Positions 5,572-57,419 of a stretch of 58,634 nt of DNA are shown piece by piece. Position numbers and translations under genes: made by a program. The stretch is from IMG/VR virus record IMGVR_UViG_3300045988_080144; one strand, 5' to 3'. The notes below the pieces were generated by a model. It was not told the origin of the DNA. It did not search any database and was given only the letters and a program-made list of their open reading frames with translations. This DNA is from a virus. Position 1 is the stretch's first letter, and the number at the start of each line of letters is the position of its first letter.

Positions 5572-5817
5572 GTGTCGGTTTCAAAAAAGGTCAAAGCCCT
5601 GCTGCTGGAGCGTGAAAAGAAGCAGTCGGATTTGATGGAAGTCTTAGGTATGAGCAGTAAGCAGAGCCTAAGCAACAAGTTCTCAAACGAAAGATGGTCT
5701 GCCGACGATCTTGTAAAAATAGCCGAATACTGTGGCTGTAAGCTGGCGTTCGTGTTACCGAATGGCGAACGGATTGTAATTGCAAATGATGATTCGACGG
5801 ACGGAATCGAAGGTTAG
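5572..5817 (+). CDS. XRE-family HTH regulator (81 aa)
   Basis: GTG 5572 lies 9 nt after AGGGAGG. Product KKVKALLLEREKKQSDLMEVLGMSSKQSLSNKFSNERWSADDLVKIAEYCGCKL is HTH-like. Confidence 0.6.
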   Translation: MSVSKKVKALLLEREKKQSDLMEVLGMSSKQSLSNKFSNERWSADDLVKIAEYCGCKLAFVLPNGERIVIANDDSTDGIEG

Positions 5818-5827
5818 GAGGTTTTTT

Positions 5828-6109
5828 GTGAACTACGACGAAATCATGGAGCGCGGCATCAGAAGGACGATCATTTCCTTTGACCCGTTTCTAAAGCGCG
5901 AAGACGTGCGCGGTCTGACCGACGCGCAGGTTGGCAAAAAGTTCGGTCTGGCAACAAAGACAGTCAAAGCGATGCGGCTGCATCAGGACGTTCCCTTTGA
6001 GACGATCCAGATCCTGTGCCATCAGCTCCAATGCCAGCCCGGCGAGATTCTGAACGCCATAGAGGTCTATACGATTCCCGCAAAAGGAGAAAGCCCGGAC
6101 GCATGGTAA
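5828..6109 (+). CDS. Putative DNA-binding protein (93 aa)
   Basis: AGGAGG precedes GTG 5828. The segment LTDAQVGKKFGLATKTVKAMR is HTH-like. Confidence 0.5.
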   Translation: MNYDEIMERGIRRTIISFDPFLKREDVRGLTDAQVGKKFGLATKTVKAMRLHQDVPFETIQILCHQLQCQPGEILNAIEVYTIPAKGESPDAW

Positions 6110-6119
6110 GCGTCCGGGC
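6093..6119. terminator. Hairpin between convergent genes
   Basis: gcccggacgc (6093-6102) pairs with gcgtccgggc (6110-6119), a perfect 10-bp stem overlapping the stop codon. Confidence 0.5.
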
Positions 6120-6132
6120 TTCGGGGAGCAAG

Positions 6133-6387
6133 TCAGGTATGTAGTTTGAAGCCGGCTCGCGTCCTTACCCGCGGCTCGCTGTTCGGCACACGGATAATCA
6201 GCTCTTCGAGTTCACAGTCCAGTGCTTCGCATATCAAATCCAAATGCTCAAGGCTGATGCGCTCGGCAAATTCGTGGTAGTAGTCGTTGATGGTAGACGG
6301 ACGTATGCCAGTTGCGCGAGCGAGATCAGCCTGCGTCCAGCGCCTTTCGCCGAGGCGCGTGGACAGTAAAATCCTAATCATAGCCAT
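6133..6387 (-). CDS. XRE-family HTH regulator (84 aa)
   Basis: Product LGERRWTQADLARATGIRPSTINDYYH is a canonical HTH_3-like motif. Confidence 0.7.
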   Translation of the reverse strand: MAMIRILLSTRLGERRWTQADLARATGIRPSTINDYYHEFAERISLEHLDLICEALDCELEELIIRVPNSEPRVRTRAGFKLHT

Positions 6388-8402: not shown

Positions 8403-9017
8403 TTACTGAGCTTCTTCCGGAAGGAAAAGCAGAAGGTCATCATTTGCGGACTGAATTTCAGAAATCAAATCGCTGACATTGGAAGCGAAGTGGCCTCTTG
8501 AACCAGACGGATTGAGAATGGTATCGTAAAGCTCAGAGTATCCGTCATAGAGTGCACGCACACCAGCGTCAATCTCTGCAGCTTCTGCGTTATCTCCGAA
8601 GTCTGTCAGAATTAGCTCTTTGTATGCTGAACAGATGCTTTCATAATTAGCTTCAACCGTTTCTTGCGACTCGTCGCTATTTTCGGCGAGCCAAGTAAAC
8701 GCCTTATCAACCATGCCGTCGCTCAGGCTTCCGAGCGCTTGCCAGTAGTTATTCTCGTAGTTTCCCATGTTGGCTAAGATCACGCTTGCCGCATACGCTT
8801 CGCTTCTGAAATCGGAGACACTTTCTTTGTAGGCTTCCAAGTCAAACTTGTCGGCTTCGATGGCATCTTCCTCGACCGTAGCATCAACTTCTGCTTCCTT
8901 TGCTGATTCCTGAGCAGCGGAATCTGGCTGCGCTGCTCTATCTGCCGAGCCGCTCCCACAGGCGCAAAAGGTTAAAACAAAAATGGAGATAAGGGCAGCG
9001 ACGATAAATTTCTTCAT
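8403..9017 (-). CDS. Secreted lipoprotein (204 aa), lysogeny-module cargo
   Basis: Signal peptide MKKFIVAALISIFVLTFCAC-GSGS with a lipobox-like Cys. Acidic mature region. Confidence 0.6.
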   Translation of the reverse strand: MKKFIVAALISIFVLTFCACGSGSADRAAQPDSAAQESAKEAEVDATVEEDAIEADKFDLEAYKESVSDFRSEAYAASVILANMGNYENNYWQALGSLSDGMVDKAFTWLAENSDESQETVEANYESICSAYKELILTDFGDNAEAAEIDAGVRALYDGYSELYDTILNPSGSRGHFASNVSDLISEIQSANDDLLLFLPEEAQ

Positions 9018-9090
9018 GGCTTCATTTCCTCCTTGTCGAAATCAAGAGAATGTTATATTTTCACGAAAAAAACCGCAAGCTGTCAGTCTG

Positions 9091-9099
9091 TGGTATAAT
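9091..9099 (+). promoter_or_regulatory. Extended -10 promoter element
   Basis: TGgTATAAT at 9091-9099, 42 nt upstream of ATG 9141. Confidence 0.4.
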
Positions 9100-9140
9100 C
9101 ATAATTGCGCCGGCAGCCCATGAGAAAAGGAGATACTGCA

Positions 9141-9302
9141 ATGTCGAGCAAAGAACTGTTGGCCATACTATGCCTTTTGGACAAGACCCCCGATGCCGTA
9201 AAGAGGAAGTTTCTTATTTTTCTCCATCAGCTGCAAGAAAGCGAAGAAAAGAGATTGCTTGCTGCTTCTTCGCTTCGGACAGACCAGCTAGAAGCGAAAT
9301 GA
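9141..9302 (+). CDS. Small 53-aa ORF convergent with, and overlapping, the 3' end of the repressor gene
   Basis: AAAGGAG RBS lies 8 nt before ATG 9141. Product MSSKELLAILCLLDKTPDAVKRKFLIFLHQLQESEEKR. Overlaps 9214-9302 antisense. Confidence 0.4.
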   Translation: MSSKELLAILCLLDKTPDAVKRKFLIFLHQLQESEEKRLLAASSLRTDQLEAK

Positions 9303-9591
9303 TTTCCATATCGACCGATGCCTGCCCGTCCTCGTCACTGAGGACGGGCTTTTTTACGTCTACGTCCATATCATCAACGAGAGTAAAAAGCTCATTCAGC
9401 GACGTGTGCATTCCCGTAGCAAGTTTATTCAGTGCCTGAAGGGTCGGCGTAATCTTTTCTCCTGTGCTGGGGTTGACTCCTCTCTCGATCATGCTGATAT
9501 ATCCGTTTGAGAGTCCACATTGCAGCGCAAATTGGCGTTGAGAAAGCCCATTTTCTGTTCTGTACTTAATAACGAGGTCTTTAAGTGTCAT
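9214..9591 (-). CDS. CI-like repressor, XRE HTH (125 aa)
   Basis: GGAGG RBS precedes ATG 9591. Product LSQRQFALQCGLSNGYISMIERG is an HTH. Divergent from the cro-like gene. No S24 peptidase domain. Confidence 0.75.
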   Translation of the reverse strand: MTLKDLVIKYRTENGLSQRQFALQCGLSNGYISMIERGVNPSTGEKITPTLQALNKLATGMHTSLNELFTLVDDMDVDVKKPVLSDEDGQASVDMEIISLLAGLSEAKKQQAISFLRFLAADGEK

Positions 9592-9619
9592 AGCGACGCC
9601 TCCGTGTTTTGTTAAGTTT

Positions 9620-9648
9620 ATTATACATTGAGCAGCCATAAGCGTCAA
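9620..9648 (-). promoter_or_regulatory. Repressor-gene promoter
   Basis: Minus strand reads TTGACG (9648-9643), 17-nt spacer, TATAAT (9625-9620). Confidence 0.6.
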
Positions 9649-45356: not shown

Positions 45357-45565
45357 GCAGAATCTACACGACTGTGCAGGGCGATATGTGGGATATGATC
45401 GCCTACAAAGAGATGGGCAGCGTGGACTATACCGACGATCTGATGAACGCCAATAGCTCGCTGCTCAGTTATTTCTCCTTTCCCGCAGGCGTCATGCTGA
45501 CAATCCCTGATGTGGTGGAGCGCAGCGCATCTACGCTGCCGCCGTGGAAGCAGGTGCAGCGATGA
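45353..45565 (+). CDS. LysM-like tail protein X
   Basis: Product IYTTVQGDMWDMIAYKEMG...GVMLTIPD. Confidence 0.65.
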   Translation: MSRIYTTVQGDMWDMIAYKEMGSVDYTDDLMNANSSLLSYFSFPAGVMLTIPDVVERSASTLPPWKQVQR

Positions 45566-47115
45566 GCAGCCGAAATCTCGCCAGACGCACAAAAGCCGAG
45601 GTTTCCTTTGGCGGCATCGACATCACAAAATCCATTCAGCCGTATCTTTTGTCGATCTCCTATACGGACAACGAAGAAGACGAAACGGACGATCTGCAAA
45701 TCAAAATCCAAGACCGCGACGATCTCTGGCTCACGCAGTGGCTCGATGAGATCTCTGAAAAGCTGTCCTGGGCATCGCCCTCCGGTGGCAGCGCATCTGG
45801 TGATGCCGTTGTCAGCGAAGCGAACAAATACCTCGGCACGCCGTATGTTTGGGGCGGCAGCAGTCCGAGCGGCTTTGACTGCTCCGGTCTTGTCTACTAC
45901 GCGCTCAACGAAGCTGGAATCAATGTTCCCAGAACAACTGCGCAGGGCTACAAGGATATGGCTACACCGGTCAACGAAGCCACAGCGCAGCCCGGCGACC
46001 TCATCTTCTTCGGCACGCAGGGCGTTGTCGACCACGTAGGTATCTACATGGGCAATGGGCAAATGGTCAATGCGACCGGTTCGTGCGTCCAGATCACAGA
46101 CATCAACACTCGCAGAGCCGGGATTATCAGTTGGGGCAGAATCGGCGGCGCCACGCAGAGCGGCTCTGCTGCCTCTGCACAGGCAGGCACGCAAAGCAGC
46201 GGCTCAGGATCTTCTACTTCCTCTGGCGAACAGGGTGCATCCTCCGATGGCGGCGGCGCAGAAGAACGACTCGCCATGGACGTTGTGTTTGTCCGTGAGA
46301 ACTGGAACAGCGACGGCTCCGACGCGGTGCTGCCGTGCGGAGAATTTGAGCTTGACAACATCTCCTGCAGCGGGCCACCGAACACAGTCTGCATCAAAGG
46401 ATCTTCGATTCCGTTTTCTTCGCAGCTCCGGCAGACCTGCAAGAGCAAGGCATGGGAAAGCTACACGCTTAGCGGCATTGCGAATGAAATCGCCGGGAGC
46501 GGCGGTATGACCTGCATGTATGAATCGGACAGCGACCCATATTATGAGCGCGTCGAGCAGATCGACATGAGCGACATTGAGTTTCTGTCGCAGCTTTGCC
46601 ATGATGCCGGCATTTCTCTCAAGGCAACAAACCGGATCCTTGTACTGTTCGATCAGCGCAAGTATGAGCAGAAGCCAGAAGTCCGCACCATCAGACGCTA
46701 TGACCACAGCTATAAGACGTACCAGCTCAGCACCAGCGCAGCCGATGCGCAGTATGCGTCGTGCCGGGTGTCCTACGTCAACCCCGAAACCGGACAGTGT
46801 ATTGAGGGCATCGCCAAGGTCGAGGGATACACCGAAGACCCGAACAATCAGCAGCTTGAAATCACCGCCAAGGTTGGAACAGTGGACGAAGCGAAGGAGC
46901 TTGCAGAAAAGAATCTCCGTCTTCGCAACAAATTCTGCCGCCAGGCACAATTCCTGCTGCCGGGAGATACCGACCTCGTTGCGGGCGTCAATGTCGCGCT
47001 CAAAGGCTGGGGCGGCTACGACGGAAAATACATCATCAAGCAGGCTGTCCACAAGCTGGACAGCGGCGGCTATACAACGCAGATCTCGCTGCGCATGGTA
47101 TTGGAGGGATATTGA
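45562..47115 (+). CDS. Baseplate hub / gpD-like late control protein with an inserted NlpC/P60 endopeptidase domain
   Basis: gpD-like N- and C-terminal parts. Internal segment GTPYVWGGSSPSGFDCSGLVYY...GDLIFF...DHVGIYMG. Confidence 0.7.
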   Translation: MSSRNLARRTKAEVSFGGIDITKSIQPYLLSISYTDNEEDETDDLQIKIQDRDDLWLTQWLDEISEKLSWASPSGGSASGDAVVSEANKYLGTPYVWGGSSPSGFDCSGLVYYALNEAGINVPRTTAQGYKDMATPVNEATAQPGDLIFFGTQGVVDHVGIYMGNGQMVNATGSCVQITDINTRRAGIISWGRIGGATQSGSAASAQAGTQSSGSGSSTSSGEQGASSDGGGAEERLAMDVVFVRENWNSDGSDAVLPCGEFELDNISCSGPPNTVCIKGSSIPFSSQLRQTCKSKAWESYTLSGIANEIAGSGGMTCMYESDSDPYYERVEQIDMSDIEFLSQLCHDAGISLKATNRILVLFDQRKYEQKPEVRTIRRYDHSYKTYQLSTSAADAQYASCRVSYVNPETGQCIEGIAKVEGYTEDPNNQQLEITAKVGTVDEAKELAEKNLRLRNKFCRQAQFLLPGDTDLVAGVNVALKGWGGYDGKYIIKQAVHKLDSGGYTTQISLRMVLEGY

Positions 47116-49514: not shown

Positions 49515-50175
49515 GCAGTACGGCCTCACGGTTGAGAACCTGCTGAACGTCCTCCCCGATGTGCTGCGGCAGGATGAAAAAATGCTCGCGCTCGCAACCG
49601 GCGTCGCGGAGATCCTGACGGCGCGGCCGGCCGAGATTGAGCAGAATATGCTCTATCAGCACATCGACACTCTGCCAGAAGATCTTCTCGACCAGCTTGC
49701 GCACGACTTCGGCGTAAGCTGGTGGGACAACGACTGGGATATTGAGCAGAAGCGCGCCACGTTCCGCGAGTCCTGGCACGTTCGCCGCCACCTCGGCACG
49801 AAGTACGCCGTCGAGCTGGCGTTGTCCACTTCGTTCGGCTCCGGTAAGGTGCAGGAATGGTTTGAATATGGCGGCGAGCCGAATCACTATCGCATCTTTG
49901 ACGTTGACATCAGACAGGTCAACGACAATATCCGCACGTTCCTGCAGATCCTCGAAGTTGTCAGCCGTAAGAGCGCGGTGCTGGACAGTATTCGTGCAAT
50001 TTCCGTCCGTGAGCTGATTCTGTACTTCGGCGCGGTTATGAGCGTCACGAAGAAATTCAAGCTCACCACGGGCGAGGTCAATACGGACATTGACATCATG
50101 GGCGACGAAGCCGGGAACGCCCTGTGCGACTGGGACGGCGGTCTGATTATGATGGATAAGGAGGCAACGGTATGA
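49507..50175 (+). CDS. Tail protein I-like (P2 gpI / XkdU class)
   Basis: Product LLNVLPDVLRQDEKMLALA...LLDQLAHDFGVSWWD. Confidence 0.65.
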   Translation: MNEQYGLTVENLLNVLPDVLRQDEKMLALATGVAEILTARPAEIEQNMLYQHIDTLPEDLLDQLAHDFGVSWWDNDWDIEQKRATFRESWHVRRHLGTKYAVELALSTSFGSGKVQEWFEYGGEPNHYRIFDVDIRQVNDNIRTFLQILEVVSRKSAVLDSIRAISVRELILYFGAVMSVTKKFKLTTGEVNTDIDIMGDEAGNALCDWDGGLIMMDKEATV

Positions 50176-51221
50176 CACACTGGTTGACCCCGGATGGGTA
50201 CAACGTCATGCTTCGCGGGCTCATGGGCGACGCGATCAAATTCACACGCATCAAATACGGCAACGGTACGCCGGGTGACGGCGCGAACGATCTGAAGAAC
50301 CCGTTGCTCTCTCTGAAAATTGCTTCTGCGACGCGCAGCGAGAAGTACGTCACACTGTCTGTGTCGTTCAAGAATGTCGAGCTGGAGATCACCGGCTTCT
50401 GGGCAACCGAAATTGGCATTTACGTCGAGGACCCCGACGATTCCACGAAGGAACTCTGCTATTGCATCTGGGAGGAAACAGAGGTCGAGAAAGCCGACTA
50501 TATCAACCCCAACGTCGAGCGCCTGCTTGCATCGCAGTACGACTTTGTGGTGTTCGTCAGCGAGGCCAAAAACGTGTCTGCGGCGCTTGGTGAAACGCTG
50601 GTCTACGCAACCGTTACGGAACTGAACAATCACAAAAACGACAAGAACAATCCACACAAGGTGACCAAGGAGCAGATCGGGCTTGGAAACGTGGAAAACA
50701 AGGCTCTGATCGACCAGACGCCCACCTTTGCGACAGCAAAGGAGCTGTCGGATATTTCATCCGGCGAGAAGATGGGGTCTATCCTCGGAAAGATTGCAAA
50801 GGCGCTGTCACTGCTGAAATCGCACCTTTCCGACTTCAACAATCCGCATCAGGTAAAAGCCGCCGATATTGGCGCCGCTGCGTCGACGCACTCGCACAAC
50901 GCAAATGACATCAACGATGGCACGGTCATTGTGCAGCGCGGTGGTACTGGCCGCAACGAGTGGACGAAGAACTGCATCGTTTTCGCGGACGGTGAGAAAT
51001 CGCTTGGGCAGGTCTCGGCACCATCGGAGGTTTCGCTTCTGGCGCAGGGGCCTGATTCCGCCCCTGTCTTTATGAAGTTGTCCAGTCTGGCGTTGTTTGT
51101 CACCGGCAACACGCCGCCGACGCAGAAGAATCTTTTCTGGATTGATCCGACGCCTGTTACCGGCGGCTTGAAGTATTGGAACGACACCGACTGGGAGCAC
51201 GTTCCTGTTGCTTATTCTTGA
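50172..51221 (+). CDS. Tail fibre protein (proximal)
   Basis: Tail-collar-like N-terminus; NPHKVTKEQIGLGNVENK and NPHQVKAADIGAA...HSH fibre motifs. Confidence 0.7.
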   Translation: MTHWLTPDGYNVMLRGLMGDAIKFTRIKYGNGTPGDGANDLKNPLLSLKIASATRSEKYVTLSVSFKNVELEITGFWATEIGIYVEDPDDSTKELCYCIWEETEVEKADYINPNVERLLASQYDFVVFVSEAKNVSAALGETLVYATVTELNNHKNDKNNPHKVTKEQIGLGNVENKALIDQTPTFATAKELSDISSGEKMGSILGKIAKALSLLKSHLSDFNNPHQVKAADIGAAASTHSHNANDINDGTVIVQRGGTGRNEWTKNCIVFADGEKSLGQVSAPSEVSLLAQGPDSAPVFMKLSSLALFVTGNTPPTQKNLFWIDPTPVTGGLKYWNDTDWEHVPVAYS

Positions 51222-51239: not shown

Positions 51240-51533
51240 ATGAAAATTCAGATTGAAGCCGAACTGTCCAATTACATCGAATCCCTGCATTATGACCGTA
51301 ATTCCATTCAGGAGCTGCTGCTCATGGCGTCAAAGCAGGGCTTGAAGGACACCGACGCATACAACGCATGGATGAAGGACTACCTCGGCAAGAGCAAGGA
51401 ATACGAGATCGCAAAAGCGACGCTGGAACGTGAGTTTATCATTCCTGCCGTCGGCAATGCAGCGGTTGACTGGGTGCTTGATTTCTCGACCGCCACGGTG
51501 ACGGTGACGCCGCGGGAGCAGACCGATGACTAG
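51240..51533 (+). CDS. Hypothetical protein (97 aa), fibre-module accessory
   Basis: Complete ORF. Its stop overlaps the rSAM gene start. Confidence 0.45.
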   Translation: MKIQIEAELSNYIESLHYDRNSIQELLLMASKQGLKDTDAYNAWMKDYLGKSKEYEIAKATLEREFIIPAVGNAAVDWVLDFSTATVTVTPREQTDD

Positions 51534-52842
51534 GCCACAGGAAACCTTCACCGATATGCTGGCGCGGCTTTTCCCCATGCCGGGTATCCAGCTTGGCATC
51601 AACTCGCCGCACTCCAAGTGCATTACATTTCAGGTGACGGAAGACTGCAACCTGCGCTGCAGCTACTGCTATCAGGGCTGCAAGACGCACCGGAAGATGT
51701 CGCTTGAAACCGCCAAGGCCGCCGTCGATATGCTGCTCGCCGCAGACGAGCGGACAAATCAGTACATCACGTCCACGGAGGTTGCCGGGGTCGTTCTTGA
51801 CTTTATCGGCGGTGAGCCGCTGCTGGAAGTCGAGCTGATCGACCAGATCCTCGACTACTTCGTGGCGCAGACCTTCCGCCTGCATCATCCATGGGCGACG
51901 CGCTGGAAAGCGTCGATGTCCACAAACGGAACGCTGTACTTCCGCCCGGAGGTACAGCGGTTTTTGGATAAGTGGGCAAAGCACCTGTCGCTCTCCATCA
52001 GCATTGACGGAGATAAGCAGCTCCACGATTCCTGCCGCGTCTTCCCGGACGGCTCTGGCAGCTATGATCTTGCTATCGCGGCCGCGAAGGATTACATGAC
52101 CAAGGGAAACGCCCTTGGCTCGAAGATGACGATTGCTCCCGGCAACGTCGATTATCTGTACCACGCAGTAATCGGTCTGCTGGACGCGGGGTATCGGGCG
52201 ATCAATCTGAACTGCGTTTACGAAAAGGGCTGGACGCTCGACCATGCGGCTACACTCTACACACAGCTCAAACGGCTCGCCGATTTCGTCCTGCTCTCGG
52301 ACGAGCAGCCGTATCTGTCAATCTTCAGCGAAAGCGTCGGCCATCCGCTTCCGGAGGACGATAATCAGAACTGGTGCGGCGGTACGGGGCTTATGCTGGC
52401 GGTTGACTGCGATGGCCTGTTCTTCCCGTGCCTGCGCTACATGGGAACCTCCCTCGGCCATGAGCAGCGGCCCTATGCCATCGGCGATCTGGAACACGGC
52501 ATCAACGTTCTTCCGGAACATCGGGCGCGGGTGGCAGAAATGGCCGCAGTCACGCGGCGCAGCCAGTCCACCGACGAATGCTTTGCGTGCCCGATCGCGT
52601 CCGGCTGCTCTTGGTGCAGCGCGTACAACTACCAATGCACAGGGACTCCGGATAAGCGCGTGACGTACATCTGCCCGATGCACAAGGCCCGCGTCCTGGC
52701 GAACGCCTACTACTGGAACAAGCTGCACCGCAGGCAGGGCGAGAGGACACGGTATCGGCTGGATATTCCCGACGATTGGGCGCTTGAGATCATCTCAGAT
52801 GCAGAGCTGGAAATGCTCAAATCTCTATCCAAGGAGGGCTGA
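51526..52842 (+). CDS. Radical SAM / SPASM-domain peptide maturase (anSME-like; CXXX-repeat-target type)
   Basis: CNLRCSYC (CX3CX2C) near the N-terminus. C-terminal auxiliary-cluster cysteines WCGG...CDGLFFPC...[20 protein letters not shown]...ICPM. Confidence 0.85.
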
Positions 52843-52844
52843 TT

Positions 52845-53567
52845 ATGGCATATATCGAGGCTGAACGCTTCGCGGCTCTGAAAGCGCGTGTCAAGGCCGA
52901 GTGCCTGCGGCGCTGCCATACCGGATCTGTTGCGGAATACGGCGGCGAAAAATACGAATACACGAACAGCCCCACCGAAGATCACACCGTCGACGTGGAG
53001 CATTATGAGAAGCTGGCGCTTCCGCTGTCGAAGATCCACAGCGAGAAAGTGCCGAGCCTTGACGGCCGCAGAATCGTGTTTGACGAGGACATCACCGAGT
53101 TTGAAGCGGCGTTGACGCTCTTTGAAACACGCCCCATGACGGACAAGACGCGGGGTGACTGTGAAACGTCCTGCACGGGAGCTTGCTACACCGGCTGTTC
53201 TGGAGACTGCACAGGCGGCTGCGAAACGACGTGCTCCGGAGAATGTCAAGGTTCCTGCACGGGCTGCGGAAGCGGCTGTGCGAACACCTGCGAAGGCTCC
53301 TGCTCCGGCGGCTGCTATGGCTGCGGCGGCAACTGCACGGGAGGCTGCTCTGGCTCCTGTGATGGTAGCTGCTCTGGTTGCTCTGGTTCCTGTTCTGGCG
53401 GCTGTTCCAGCAGTTGTTCTGGCGGCTGCAAATCGTCCTGCACAGTGACCTGCGGCAACACTGGCTGCGTCGGCTCGTGCCTTGGCCTTTGTTCTGCCGG
53501 CTGCACGACCTCGTGCCAGACGTCCTGCGGCTATTGCGGGACAAACTGCACAGCCGTATCGAAGTAA
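52845..53567 (+). CDS. CXXX-repeat protein: 105-aa N-terminal domain plus 135-aa core with 34 Cys
   Basis: GGAGGG RBS. The core is encoded at 53160-53564. Inter-Cys spacing is 3 residues in 28 of 33 intervals (hand count). Confidence 0.8.
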
Positions 53568-53579
53568 GGAGGTAGCCCT

Positions 53580-54128
53580 TTGGAAATTGCAAGTAAATAC
53601 GAAATCGCTGCGGCGAACCTCGCAATCGCTTTGCAGACGGACACGGTTTCCGTCGAGCAGCGAAGTGAGCTGCGAGCGGCAATCGGCAGCAGCATCGACA
53701 AACTCGTCGACGCGCTCAACATGATTATCGTCTGCTACAACAAGCGAATGTACGCTGGCGAGATCGCGCCCGAAAAAGCCGCAAAGTGCGTCAAGGCAGA
53801 ATACGCCGCCATCGGCCTTTCCAACGTGGTCGCATACGATTATTTCTCCGCGGCGGTCGGTGCGTTCTTCACGCGCAAAACCCTGATGGCGCTGTCGACC
53901 GATGAAAAGCTCGCGTGGGTGAAAACGGTCTTCGAGCAGAACGAACGCTGCGGCTGTCAGCGCGTCAAAGATGCGCTGTTCATCTACTGCCTGCGGCTGC
54001 TGTCGCACATGGGCATCGTCACAGCGGATCTCTCTTTCACGAACCTCGTCATGCGCGAGATCAACGCCATCACGGAAGACCGAAAGAACGCCGCGATCAT
54101 GCCGCAGGCGCTCGTCACGGAATTGTAA
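53580..54128 (+). CDS. Helical partner protein of the rSAM/CXXX cassette (182 aa)
   Basis: AAGGAGG lies 7 nt before TTG 53580. No recognisable domain. Confidence 0.55.
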   Translation: MEIASKYEIAAANLAIALQTDTVSVEQRSELRAAIGSSIDKLVDALNMIIVCYNKRMYAGEIAPEKAAKCVKAEYAAIGLSNVVAYDYFSAAVGAFFTRKTLMALSTDEKLAWVKTVFEQNERCGCQRVKDALFIYCLRLLSHMGIVTADLSFTNLVMREINAITEDRKNAAIMPQALVTEL

Positions 54129-54139
54129 GGGGTGATCGT

Positions 54140-55183
54140 ATGGCAGTAGAAAACGTAAATTCCAAGCCGATTGCCGCTTCTGCGGCGATTGCCGACTTTA
54201 TCCTCGCATCGATTGGCGGCAAGGTTCGCCGTGTTCCGATCAGCACCCTTGCTGAAACACTCACCGATGCCGAAGTTGAGCTTATCAGCGCCGCTGCGTC
54301 TGCGCTGGTGTCGGCTGCGGGCAGAGCCTGTTATATCGGCACAAATGAAAACTGGTACGTATGGGATGGCGCACAGGGCGCGTTCGTCGATTCGGGGTAT
54401 CCATCGCGCGGCACACAGGGCGAACCCGGCGTAATCTTTACGCCGCACGTGACCGAAGCCGGTATTCTGAGCTGGACGAACAACGGCGGTCTTCCGAACC
54501 CAGAACCGGTCAGCCTGCTCGGCCCTGCGGGCGGCGTGACTTCGTTCAATAGCCGTTCCGGTGCGGTCGTCCCGAAAAACGGTGACTATACCGCAGAGAT
54601 GGTCGGAGCGGAAGAAAAAGACGCCGTCAAGAATCACAACGAGTCCGAGACCGCGCACAAAGATCTGTTCAATGCGAAACTGAATAAGGACGGCGACGGC
54701 GGCACTCTGAAACCTACCTTCACGCAGTCCGCAACGAGAACGCAGCTTGAATCCGGTCTGGAAATGAAAGTCCTTCTTGGACGCATTATGAAGTGGCTGG
54801 CCGACCTCGGCTCTGCGGCGTTCAAAGACAGCGGAAATTTTGAATCCGCAGGTGCTGGTGACGCAGCGGTTTCCGCGCACAACACCGCTGTGCAGGCCCA
54901 CGCTGACCTGTTTGCAAAAAAAGCCGGCAAGGGCATCGCGTTCACGCTCACACTTTCTGTCGCAGGATGGTCGAATCTTGCACAGACGCTGGAAGATGCG
55001 CGCTTCCTCGACGCCGAGTATGCCTATATCGTGACGCCGACGGCCGACAGCCTCACGGCGTGGGGCGACGCAGGAATCCGCGTCGGTGACATTACGGAGA
55101 ACGGCAAAATGCCGTTTACCTGCACAGATACGCCGGCAAGCGCAATCACAGTAAATATTTACAGAGCGGAGGTCGCACAATGA
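54140..55183 (+). CDS. Tail fibre protein (347 aa)
   Basis: ATG 54140. Short collagen-like GTQGEPG; fibre-like His motifs ETAHKDLF and AVQAHADLF. Confidence 0.55.
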   Translation: MAVENVNSKPIAASAAIADFILASIGGKVRRVPISTLAETLTDAEVELISAAASALVSAAGRACYIGTNENWYVWDGAQGAFVDSGYPSRGTQGEPGVIFTPHVTEAGILSWTNNGGLPNPEPVSLLGPAGGVTSFNSRSGAVVPKNGDYTAEMVGAEEKDAVKNHNESETAHKDLFNAKLNKDGDGGTLKPTFTQSATRTQLESGLEMKVLLGRIMKWLADLGSAAFKDSGNFESAGAGDAAVSAHNTAVQAHADLFAKKAGKGIAFTLTLSVAGWSNLAQTLEDARFLDAEYAYIVTPTADSLTAWGDAGIRVGDITENGKMPFTCTDTPASAITVNIYRAEVAQ

Positions 55184-57051
55184 GCAAAGTATTTCAGATG
55201 CTCGGCGGAAGCGGCGGCAGTATCAAGCTCGCGTCCATTGAGATCACAACGCCGCCCACAAAGACCGCCTACAAGGCTGGTGAGCAGTTTTCGACGGCTG
55301 GCATGGTTGTCAAGGCGACGTATTCCAACGGCGCCACGCTGATTGCAACAGGCGTATCGGTCGAGCCAAGCGGCGGTCTGGAAGCAGGTCGCACCAGCGT
55401 CACCATCCGATACACGGAGGGCGGCGTATCCTGCACCGCAACACAGGCGATCACAGTCACCAAGACGAATGTGACCGTGCCGAGCCAGAGCGGAAGCCTG
55501 ACCTATTCAGGCAGCTCGCAAAGCCCGGCATGGTACAACTACGATACGACGAAAATGACGCTCGGCGGCACGACCAGTGGCACGAACGCCGGCAATTACA
55601 GCGCGAAGTTTACGCTGAAAGACACAGCCCTCTATCAGTGGGCAGACGGCTCGACCGCTCCGAAAACCGTATCGTGGAAGATCGGCAAGGCAGATGGCTC
55701 ACTGACGCTCAGCAAGACTTCGATCAAGCTGGAAGACGGAAAACTGACAGATTCTTTCACGGTCACACGGCTTGGCACAGGAACAATCACAGCCGTGTCC
55801 AACCGCCCCGATATTGCCAGTGTTTCCATTTCGGGAAATATTGTGACCGTCCACAGCGTCGATGAAAACTCCGGCACGGTTACGATCACGGTTTCCGTTG
55901 CCAGCGACACGAACTACAACGCGCCGGCAAGCAAGACCTGCACCGTGTCGTGCGTGTTCGTGACAATCTTCGGCGTCTGCTGGACGTACAGCAACTCCTC
56001 TCCGGCTCTTTCCCGCCTGACGCCGAGCAACGACCCGAACGGCTATGTCAATGCCGCCGTGTCCTCGGAGCCGAGCGCTGCCATCGGCACAGGCGCTGGC
56101 AGCTCTCCATTCGACGCATTCATGCCGTGGCAAGGCATGGAGGAATACAACATCATCAACGGCGCGGTGTCGTACAAAAAGGGACAGTCCGGATTCTCCC
56201 GCACGTCCTACGATACGATGGTCTTTATCCCTGAGTTTTACTACAAGATCGTCTATAACAGCAGCCAGAGCAAGATCTATTACTACGTTGCAAACGCGCC
56301 GTTCACCGGCTTTGCCAAGCACCCCGGTTCCGGTCGCTATGTTGGACGATACAATACGATCTCCGGCTATGCCTCCAAATCTGGTGCAAATCCGCTGACG
56401 AGCATGACGCGCGCCACAGCCCGCGCAAACTCCCGGAACAAGGGCAGCAAGTGGCAGCAGTACGATTATGCGTCGTGGTGCGCGGTCTGGCTGCTCTATC
56501 TCGTCGAGTATGCAAACTGGGATAGCCAGAGCAAAATCGGCAACGGTATTGTCGGCAATTCCTCGCTGCAGAAGACGGGTACGACGGACAGCATGACCTA
56601 CCACACCGGCACGGTCGCTTCCGCCAGGACAGGCTATGGCGGCGTACAGTATCGCGGCATTGAAAACCCGTGGGGCAATGTCTATGACTGGATTGACGGC
56701 ATCAACTTCAACAACCGCGCGGCTTATATCTGCACCGATCCGTCGAAGTACGCAGACGATACGTCCACCAACTACACGGCGGCTGGGCTCAGCCTGCCGA
56801 GCAGCGGCAATATCAAAACGCTCGGAAACTGCACGGCCCTCCCATGGGCATTTATTCCGACGGGAACCGGTGGCAGCGGCACGACCTACGTGCCAGACTA
56901 CGTGTACTCGTATTCTGGCTGGTGTGTTCTCTGCGTCGGTGGCTACTGCAGGTATGATGCTGCGTACTGCGGCCTGTTCTTTTTCAATGGCAACTACGAT
57001 TCGTCCGGCGCGGGCTCGAGCATCGGCGCGCGCCTCCTTTACGTCCCCTAA
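55180..57051 (+). CDS. DGR target: distal fibre/receptor-binding protein with Ig-like N-terminal repeats and a C-type-lectin/FGE-like C-terminal domain carrying the VR
   Basis: ATGA overlap at 55180. The C-terminus ...YSGWCVLCVGGYCRYDAAYCGLFFFNGNYDSSGAGSSIGARLLYVP matches the TR. Confidence 0.85.
   Translation: MSKVFQMLGGSGGSIKLASIEITTPPTKTAYKAGEQFSTAGMVVKATYSNGATLIATGVSVEPSGGLEAGRTSVTIRYTEGGVSCTATQAITVTKTNVTVPSQSGSLTYSGSSQSPAWYNYDTTKMTLGGTTSGTNAGNYSAKFTLKDTALYQWADGSTAPKTVSWKIGKADGSLTLSKTSIKLEDGKLTDSFTVTRLGTGTITAVSNRPDIASVSISGNIVTVHSVDENSGTVTITVSVASDTNYNAPASKTCTVSCVFVTIFGVCWTYSNSSPALSRLTPSNDPNGYVNAAVSSEPSAAIGTGAGSSPFDAFMPWQGMEEYNIINGAVSYKKGQSGFSRTSYDTMVFIPEFYYKIVYNSSQSKIYYYVANAPFTGFAKHPGSGRYVGRYNTISGYASKSGANPLTSMTRATARANSRNKGSKWQQYDYASWCAVWLLYLVEYANWDSQSKIGNGIVGNSSLQKTGTTDSMTYHTGTVASARTGYGGVQYRGIENPWGNVYDWIDGINFNNRAAYICTDPSKYADDTSTNYTAAGLSLPSSGNIKTLGNCTALPWAFIPTGTGGSGTTYVPDYVYSYSGWCVLCVGGYCRYDAAYCGLFFFNGNYDSSGAGSSIGARLLYVP
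56900..57039 (+). repeat. DGR variable repeat (VR)
   Basis: 128/140 identical to 57280-57419. All 12 differences lie at TR adenines. Confidence 0.9.
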
Positions 57052-57279: not shown

Positions 57280-57419
57280 ACGTGAACTCGAATTCTGGCT
57301 GGTGTGTTCTCTGCGTCGGTGGCTACTACAGGAATGATGCTGCGAACTGCGGCCTGTTCTTTTTCAATGGCAACTACAATTCGTCCAACGCGAACTCGAA
57401 CATCGGCGCGCGCCTACTT
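57280..57419 (+). repeat. DGR template repeat (TR)
   Basis: Non-coding copy of the VR. AAC/AAT-rich in the VR frame (28 adenines). Confidence 0.9.

Follow-up and report, generated by a model that had tools for sequence, protein, structure and literature searches.

A three-gene cassette between phage tail genes

The window (the whole stretch of DNA analyzed here, 58,634 nucleotides; IMG/VR record IMGVR_UViG_3300045988_080144) derives from a phage or prophage with a contractile tail that has gut Oscillospiraceae as hosts. Genes for terminase, portal, major head/capsid protein, tape measure, Baseplate_J, and Tail_P2_I are followed by the gene for a fiber-like protein, then by a cassette of three genes, and finally by the genes for two tail proteins. 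The three genes of the cassette lie on the + strand. The first gene of the cassette (51240..51533) encodes a small partner protein of 97 aa and overlaps the start of the second by 8 nt. The second (51526..52842) encodes a radical SAM/SPASM maturase of 438 aa, and its stop codon lies 2 nt 5′ of the ATG of the third (52845..53567), which encodes a CXXX-repeat protein of 240 aa (the Cys protein). The ATG of the Cys gene is preceded, at a distance of 7 nt, by a Shine–Dalgarno sequence (AAGGAGG; 52831-52837). The Cys protein consists of a conserved N-terminal domain (N-domain; residues 1-105; 52845..53159, +), a candidate for a recognition ("leader-like") and/or docking domain, and of the Cys array (residues 106-240; 53160..53564, +). 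An earlier note on this DNA, made from the letters and a list of open reading frames, had singled out the array and speculated on its structure; absent from that account were the maturase gene, the family names that already exist in NCBIfam and Pfam, and the location within a tail-fiber module.

Directly 5′ of the cassette lies the gene for the tail-fiber-like protein (50172..51221, +; 349 aa), which matched phrog_2163 (virion structural protein; 3.9e-52) and phrog_7037 (tail fiber protein). Its C-terminus consists of the motif WIDPTPVTGGLKYWNDTDW, the codons for which start at 51138, and eight further residues. Directly 3′ of the Cys gene, a protein of 182 aa is encoded (53580..54128, +) that starts with TTG and has its own AAGGAGG at 53566-53572. 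The two tail genes beyond it (54140..57051, +), for proteins of 347 and 623 aa, are outside the cassette and given here as context; the 623-aa protein carries a Big_3 domain and matched phrog_5302 (tail protein). The C-terminus of this protein is the target of a diversity-generating retroelement, with the variable region at 56920-57039 and the template at 57300-57419. Between the two copies of 120 nt, there are 10 differences, all of them at adenines of the downstream copy. The reverse transcriptase would lie beyond about 57500, where it is cut off by the end of the window; related contigs contain an RVT_1 gene (365 aa) in the same place. Further upstream, a baseplate hub-like protein (45544-47115; weak match to Phage_GPD) has a peptidoglycan hydrolase domain of the NlpC/P60 type at its N-terminus.

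The Cys array is maintained at the protein level

A script count gave 36 Cys in the 240-aa Cys protein, two of which (C20 and C24) are in the N-terminal 105 residues and 34 in residues 106-235. The 33 intervals between the latter measure three residues in 28 cases, two residues in four, and four residues in one. Translation of 53160-53564 yielded the same array as in the earlier note, and the recount reproduced its figures exactly (34 Cys in a core of 135 residues, the 28/4/1 split of the intervals, and only two Cys in the preceding domain). The 135 residues include, besides the 34 Cys, 33 Gly, 25 Ser, and 17 Thr, and only six Asp or Glu. When the core was shuffled 100,000 times, CX3C intervals occurred 3.5 times on average and 13 times at most, compared with 28 in the actual sequence. 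A simple tandem repeat at the DNA level can be ruled out, since the repetition in the DNA is degenerate; Tandem Repeats Finder detected only two short arrays (19 and 39 nt) in the DNA of the array, and its direct repeat copies share 60-78% identity. Comparison of the core with five relatives of equal length revealed nucleotide differences at codon positions 1/2/3 of 5/2/50, 10/6/51, 9/4/53, 5/3/50, and 19/11/70, and not a single Cys codon was altered. The periodicity is thus under selection at the protein level, as had been proposed.

The Cys gene is overlapped by several long ORFs, among them 52710-54008 (−), 53092-53682 (−), and 53155-53448 (+). Such shadow ORFs on both strands had also been pointed out in the earlier note; they are by-products of composition. 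Because the differences between relatives sit at third codon positions and leave Cys unchanged, the + frame of 52845-53567 is the true gene, and the codon-position test rules out that another frame or a shadow ORF takes its place. In several public assemblies (P0002, P0023-P0027, and P0030), the gene is present in frameshifted versions, which leave the Cys frame within the array and continue into the shadow ORF 53482-53724 (window region 53470-53724). These are probably due to sequencing or assembly errors in a GC-rich repeat, the alternative being real insertions or deletions.

A conserved N-domain with an array of variable length

The Cys protein has 954 homologs at E ≤ 1e-3, and the array statistics given here were derived from the 120 of them that were listed. 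Among these 120, the array of almost every full-length member sets in at residue 104-107, and arrays contain 13 to 36 Cys. Pooled, its intervals are predominantly CX3 (2,235), followed by CX2 (480) and CX4 (49); intervals of no or one residue amount to 6 of 2,772 and do not occur in the protein of the window. Family-wide, the onset of the array is conserved as D-C-K/E-x-x-C-T-G-x-C-Y-T-G-C. Beyond it, Cys is the sole invariant feature, and the Gly, Ser, and Thr residues between the cysteines show little preference for position. Near-identical phages vary by entire blocks of the array, which results in proteins of 202, 210, or 240 aa. Because the pooled intervals are mostly CX3 and because array length varies by blocks, the alignment of homologs indicates that the Cys register is conserved, whereas the repeat number is free; a register that is not conserved, which the earlier note had named as grounds for abandoning its interpretation, was not seen.

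The N-terminal ∼105 residues, previously described as leader-like, indeed form a distinct domain. Across 67 sequences, K13, R23, V29, Y32, E52, and P60 are invariant, and AlphaFold predicted a helical structure with block-mean pLDDT values of 62-86. For the array, no structure was predicted (pLDDT about 30). The earlier note had envisaged a Cys ladder with i/i+4 spacing, as on a helix. Such a ladder is supported neither by this prediction nor by the family-wide composition of the array, which contains 24% Gly, 16% Ser, and 12% Thr (Asp and Glu contribute about 5%; 3.8% and 1.3%, respectively).

No match to the N-domain was found in Pfam, NCBIfam (neither NHLP nor Nif11), PHROG, or among PDB folds. 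The only PHROG match of the Cys protein was phrog_6085, for which no function is annotated, and a search of the viral fold library returned unannotated homologs alone. With the N-domain as the sole query, 162 clusters were retrieved from 1.84 billion representatives; 139 of the representatives returned were new, and an array of eight or more Cys is present in 89 of them. Most of the remaining 50 do not reach 170 aa in length and look like fragments. A full-length protein with 99% identity to that of the window (P0001) carries a precomputed assignment to Pfam PF27846, printed as tSAM_targ_Cxxx_rpt, and the same family is recorded on P0006 in three loci (L001-L003). The assignment of the window protein to PF27846 is therefore indirect, via near-identical copies; its direct Pfam search, with a model set that apparently does not include PF27846, gave no match. 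In some members of the family, additional domains of 130-190 aa precede the N-domain, interrupt it, or follow the array (P0258, P0335, P0292, P0056, P0326, and P0352). Those of P0258, P0335, and P0326 had no match in Pfam, PHROG, or PDB sequences.

The neighboring enzyme is a peptide maturase of the CXXX-repeat target family

The maturase matched Pfam Radical_SAM and, with 474.4 bits (cut-off 350; model positions 2-359 of 359), NCBIfam TIGR04115, the "radical SAM peptide maturase, CXXX-repeat target family"; its protein cluster bears the corresponding name at JGI ("radical SAM peptide maturase (CXXX-repeat target family)"). The radical SAM motif CX3CX2C is formed by C41, C45, and C48. Nine Cys follow in the C-terminal part (positions 284, 295, 302, 352, 355, 361, 364, 371, and 383), in which a SPASM pattern can be recognized (C284...G297...C302; C352-x2-C355-x5-C361-x2-C364; C371; C383). 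Because TIGR04115 was matched above its cut-off and because PF27846 is recorded on near-identical Cys proteins, enzyme and Cys target are, as judged from these assignments, a pair of a catalogued kind.

Altogether, 66 NCBIfam models matched the maturase, nearly all of them for RiPP maturases. Second best after TIGR04115 was PapB (NF047865), with 181.3 bits (cut-off 340; model positions 2-329 of 330). Weaker matches were obtained for CcpM (Cys-rich peptides; 121 bits), QhpD (TIGR03906; 109 bits, cut-off 453), SCIFF (TIGR03974; 102.1 bits, cut-off 425), and the sulfatase maturase TIGR03942 (56 bits), and cyclophane-forming and other maturase models also matched weakly. No characterized family was thus matched above its cut-off. 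The best PDB chain was 5WGG (E = 1.6e-20), taken here as CteB, the enzyme that installs the thioethers of SCIFF in Clostridium thermocellum. Because the alignment starts at residue 97 of 5WGG (residues 97-425 were aligned), the maturase of the window lacks the counterpart of its first ∼96 residues, presumably the peptide-recognition domain of that enzyme.

When 50,697 phage records (a collection of cultured phages) were searched by tblastn, the closest matches to the maturase were unannotated fecal contigs with 39% identity, and the Cys protein found no match. Radical SAM proteins with 25-28% identity to the maturase over ∼80% of its length also exist in cultured jumbo phages (Salmonella SPN3US-like and Erwinia phages; H3-H30).

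A third conserved partner, sometimes fused to the maturase

An iterated HMM detected the family of the 97-aa protein in 83 loci. Twelve of these 83 matches were to maturase ORFs of at least 400 aa, in which the 97-aa protein forms an N-terminal extension of the enzyme; the fused ORFs comprise roughly 490-560 aa (e.g., in L031, L006, L039, L037, L073, L033, and L041). AlphaFold predicted a β strand, four helices, and a β hairpin for the 97-aa protein (mean pLDDT 67). It had no match in Pfam or NCBIfam, a PDB profile search returned hits at chance level only, and Foldseek returned nothing at E ≤ 0.001. A known peptide-recognition fold thus found no support in these searches. A role as recognition element is nevertheless proposed because the maturase is devoid of the N-terminal extension of 5WGG, assumed above to serve recognition, and because the 97-aa protein sits in its place. 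As no solved fold was matched, it is from position and fusion that this proposal is drawn. One locus (L067) contains two CXXX-repeat genes (5724-6365 and 8991-9641), one on either side of a single 97-aa gene and maturase gene.

The cassette is inherited within phage tail modules

To survey the genomic context, ∼90 loci were assembled, of which IMG/VR contributed 65, reference genomes 15, and exact look-ups 9. Of the 90 sequences scanned with the iterated HMMs (89 loci and the window's own tail region), 89 were positive for the Cys protein, 85 for the maturase, and 83 for the 97-aa family. For the first 74 loci, tblastn placed the maturase and the Cys gene no more than about 2.6 kb apart, with four exceptions, three of which are contigs that end just past the Cys gene. 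The linkage persists at Cys-protein identities down to 27% and in either gene order. A gene for a fiber-like protein is found within 4.5 kb in 79 of the 89 loci, and in unrelated contigs, genes for Dit_like, Sheath_initiator, PAAR_motif, and (faintly) Phage_Wedge1 proteins lie just 5′ of the cassette. No peptidase or transporter families were encountered among the listed neighboring genes of the loci. Thus, the Cys protein, the maturase, and the 97-aa partner are co-inherited within phage tail modules. The hosts given in the genome records are Oscillospiraceae, Clostridia, Christensenella, and Neglectibacter. Copies with 100% identity occur in an uncultured MAG and in Firmicutes bacterium CAG:170 (L075 and L076). 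Clostridia and the other hosts named are strict anaerobes.

In most loci, the protein encoded upstream, which varies between 84 and 628 aa, ends with the C-terminal motif WIDT..GGLKYYNGSAW..VPVAY. It is part of a module of ∼40 residues (..PxxxxLLWIDTxxxTGGLKYYNGSAWVHVPVAYT-stop; 51138-51221 in the window), which may be a fiber-joining module. The motif is not exclusive to the cassette; five loci (L103-L107) have the former without the latter. The 182-aa protein encoded 3′ of the Cys gene was considered as a universal fourth member and rejected. It matched no family, its own family is present in 42 of the loci only, and hhalign saw no relation to the proteins of 130-200 aa encoded at the same site elsewhere (probability 0.1). 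We regard it as an accessory.

In two IMG/VR loci (L042 and L043; e.g., L043:9543-10829 and L043:7971-8700), the genes for the maturase and the Cys protein are broken only by in-frame TAG codons. Several of these occupy positions at which relatives have Gln (CSYCY*QNKG versus CSYCYQ). In these phages, TAG is probably translated as Gln, and the cassette has been retained.

Possible modification of the array and its role in the tail

On balance, we lean toward a joint reading of these results, according to which the Cys array is the site at which the maturase acts, most likely by forming thioethers, and the full-length product probably works with the tail. The maturase and the 97-aa protein would jointly bind the 105-aa N-domain. 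The enzyme would then, as its family relationship suggests, modify the array by SAM-derived radical chemistry. The most likely product would be many short-range thioethers from Cys sulfur to carbon of the Gly, Ser, and Thr residues between the cysteines, by which a flexible chain of Gly, Ser, Thr, and Cys would become covalently stapled. The position of the gene and the domain architecture of the protein suggest that this product stays full-length instead of being cut into a secreted peptide, and that it acts with the tail fibers, as either a fiber/adhesin component or an assembly factor.

Thioether chemistry is favored because the strongest matches to characterized families are to thioether formers (PapB, CcpM, QhpD, and SCIFF). 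The thioether staple suggested in the earlier note thereby gains indirect support, namely from an adjoining radical SAM/SPASM gene above the TIGR04115 cut-off whose nearest characterized relatives form thioethers; the helical ladder in which the staple had been arranged does not. Since the PapB and SCIFF models stay far below their cut-offs, the chemistry of these enzymes cannot be transferred. Moreover, with six acidic residues for 34 Cys, Cys–Asp links of the PapB type cannot be the main product, and the acceptors of thioethers would have to be Gly, Ser, or Thr. A full-length, tail-associated product is favored because the cassette sits between tail genes of the late operon, because the neighboring genes include neither peptidases nor transporters, and because some members carry extra domains of 130-190 aa. 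None of these three points is conclusive; a position within a tail operon does not by itself prove incorporation into the virion, and a role there is suggested by synteny.

If the array were cross-linked and built into the tail, radical SAM peptide chemistry would be joined to virion assembly, two fields that rarely meet, and enzymologists would gain a substrate with about 30 repeated sites per chain. A bolder version, which we put forward tentatively, is that the phage builds its own particle with radical SAM chemistry of the RiPP type, the Cys array of a tail protein being stapled by dozens of thioethers in the reducing cytoplasm of an anaerobe. This would create a protease- and reductant-proof fiber segment, where the phages of aerobes might use disulfides or metal ions. 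If true, no virion protein with thioether cross-links installed by an enzyme would have been known before, and the Cys protein would exceed all known peptide substrates of radical SAM enzymes in size.

Alternatively, the Cys protein might be the precursor of a phage RiPP with a long leader of 105 aa, the modified core of which would be cut off and released at lysis as an antimicrobial, signaling, or metal-chelating peptide. This would agree with the membership of the maturase in the peptide-maturase superfamily, and the combination of a conserved N-domain and a core of variable length resembles that of leader/core precursors. Long leader domains are known from other RiPP classes (NHLP and Nif11). 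However, the N-domain of the Cys protein belongs neither to these nor to any other family searched, and the extra domains found in some members would be odd for a leader. The gene lies between tail genes of the late operon instead of in a moron position. No peptidase or transporter is encoded among the listed neighbors, even though host enzymes or lysis could serve in their place. To our knowledge, the core, with 135 residues and 34 Cys, also far exceeds those of known radical SAM RiPPs. We therefore consider release of a peptide rather unlikely; should it occur, the peptide would rank as an unusually large natural product encoded by a phage.

The role in the tail could also be as proposed in the favored reading while the chemistry differs, for instance, by formation of formylglycine, as in anaerobic sulfatase maturases, or of C–C or other cross-links. 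SPASM enzymes also oxidize Cys to formylglycine or make C–C links, the sulfatase maturase, cyclophane-forming, and other models do match the maturase of the window weakly, and no characterized family is matched above its cut-off. Yet, the thioether formers score highest (PapB 181, CcpM 121, QhpD 109, and SCIFF 102 versus 56 bits for the sulfatase maturase), and Cys is the only invariant feature of the substrate, which renders chemistry other than thioether formation distinctly unlikely in our judgment.

A further explanation would dispense with modification of the array altogether. It would then serve as a metallothionein-like rod that binds metal (Zn, Fe, or Cu) or iron–sulfur clusters, or donates the latter, and would merely be needed or used by the radical SAM enzyme. 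A metal-binding rod was among the structures considered in the earlier note; the array of the window has the 24-25% Cys, the small residues, and the paucity of aromatic ones to be expected of it, and tail fibers and spikes of phages do bind metal ions. Against it stand the lack of CC and CXC pairs in the window and their near absence from the 120 homologs listed. In addition, the linkage of three genes, and the fusion with an enzyme of a peptide-maturase family, are better explained by a relation of enzyme and substrate. Taken together, an unmodified rod appears very improbable. Finally, the notion that the array is an artefact, the real gene being a GC-rich shadow ORF or the DNA being low-complexity and non-coding, draws on the long ORFs in other frames and on the other strand but is practically negligible given the third-position bias of the + frame (e.g., 5/2/50) with no change of Cys, the presence of N-domain and array in one frame in hundreds of homologs, the Shine–Dalgarno sequence, and the tight coupling to the flanking genes.

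Both the enzyme and its target already bear names in NCBIfam and Pfam; a full-text literature search found no published biochemical or biological study of the CXXX-repeat pair or of TIGR04115, be it of the action of the enzyme or of the role of its product. Our survey adds that the system is a cassette of the tail module in phages of gut Clostridia, that enzyme and substrate are joined by a third conserved protein, which some phages encode as a fusion with the enzyme, and that the substrate is a full-size protein, sometimes with additional domains.

Comparison with known systems

Of the maturases that have been characterized, PapB, which acts on PapA (the ranthipeptide freyrasin), provides the best-scoring model, with an alignment over nearly its full length, and both substrates share the regular, short spacing of Cys. 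According to two reports (PMC9413430, PMC10739248), PapB makes in-line, short-range thioether rings from Cys to Asp or Glu, in a substrate in which Cys are spaced at short and regular distances. The score of the maturase from the window, however, is little more than half of the PapB cut-off (181.3 versus 340 bits). The pairing of Cys with Asp or Glu at a fixed spacing is absent from the array, in which six acidic residues face 34 Cys, and the substrate is a 240-aa protein encoded in a phage tail operon instead of a short bacterial peptide.

By sequence, the closest solved structure is 5WGG, and the enzyme to which we ascribe it, CteB, is a clostridial SPASM enzyme that forms thioethers. SCIFF peptides measure about 45 aa and contain six Cys, whereas the target in the window comprises 240 aa with 34 Cys in the array; the SCIFF model TIGR03974 also scores far too low (102.1 versus 425 bits). 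Unlike 5WGG, the maturase of the window starts without the first ∼96 residues, and a separate 97-aa protein is encoded there instead.

A precedent for thioethers in a lasting subunit, as opposed to a released peptide, is offered by QhpD. This SPASM enzyme installs Cys thioethers in a polypeptide, QhpC, that is kept as a permanent protein subunit of quinohemoprotein amine dehydrogenase. TIGR03906 matched the maturase with 109 bits, far under the cut-off of 453; QhpC, in addition, has few cross-links, which lead to Asp or Glu, and there is no phage context. Metallothioneins differ from the array in their CC and CXC clusters and in a Cys content of ∼30%; the array in the window has 25% Cys and neither type of pair.

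The system that corresponds most closely is the CXXX-repeat system of TIGR04115 and PF27846, which is in fact the family to which the cassette belongs: the maturase scores above the cut-off, the CXXX target carries PF27846 in near-identical copies, and the two genes are adjacent. That system was defined by sequence only; the present survey documents its setting in a tail module, its conserved third member of 97 aa, and the fusions of that member to the maturase.
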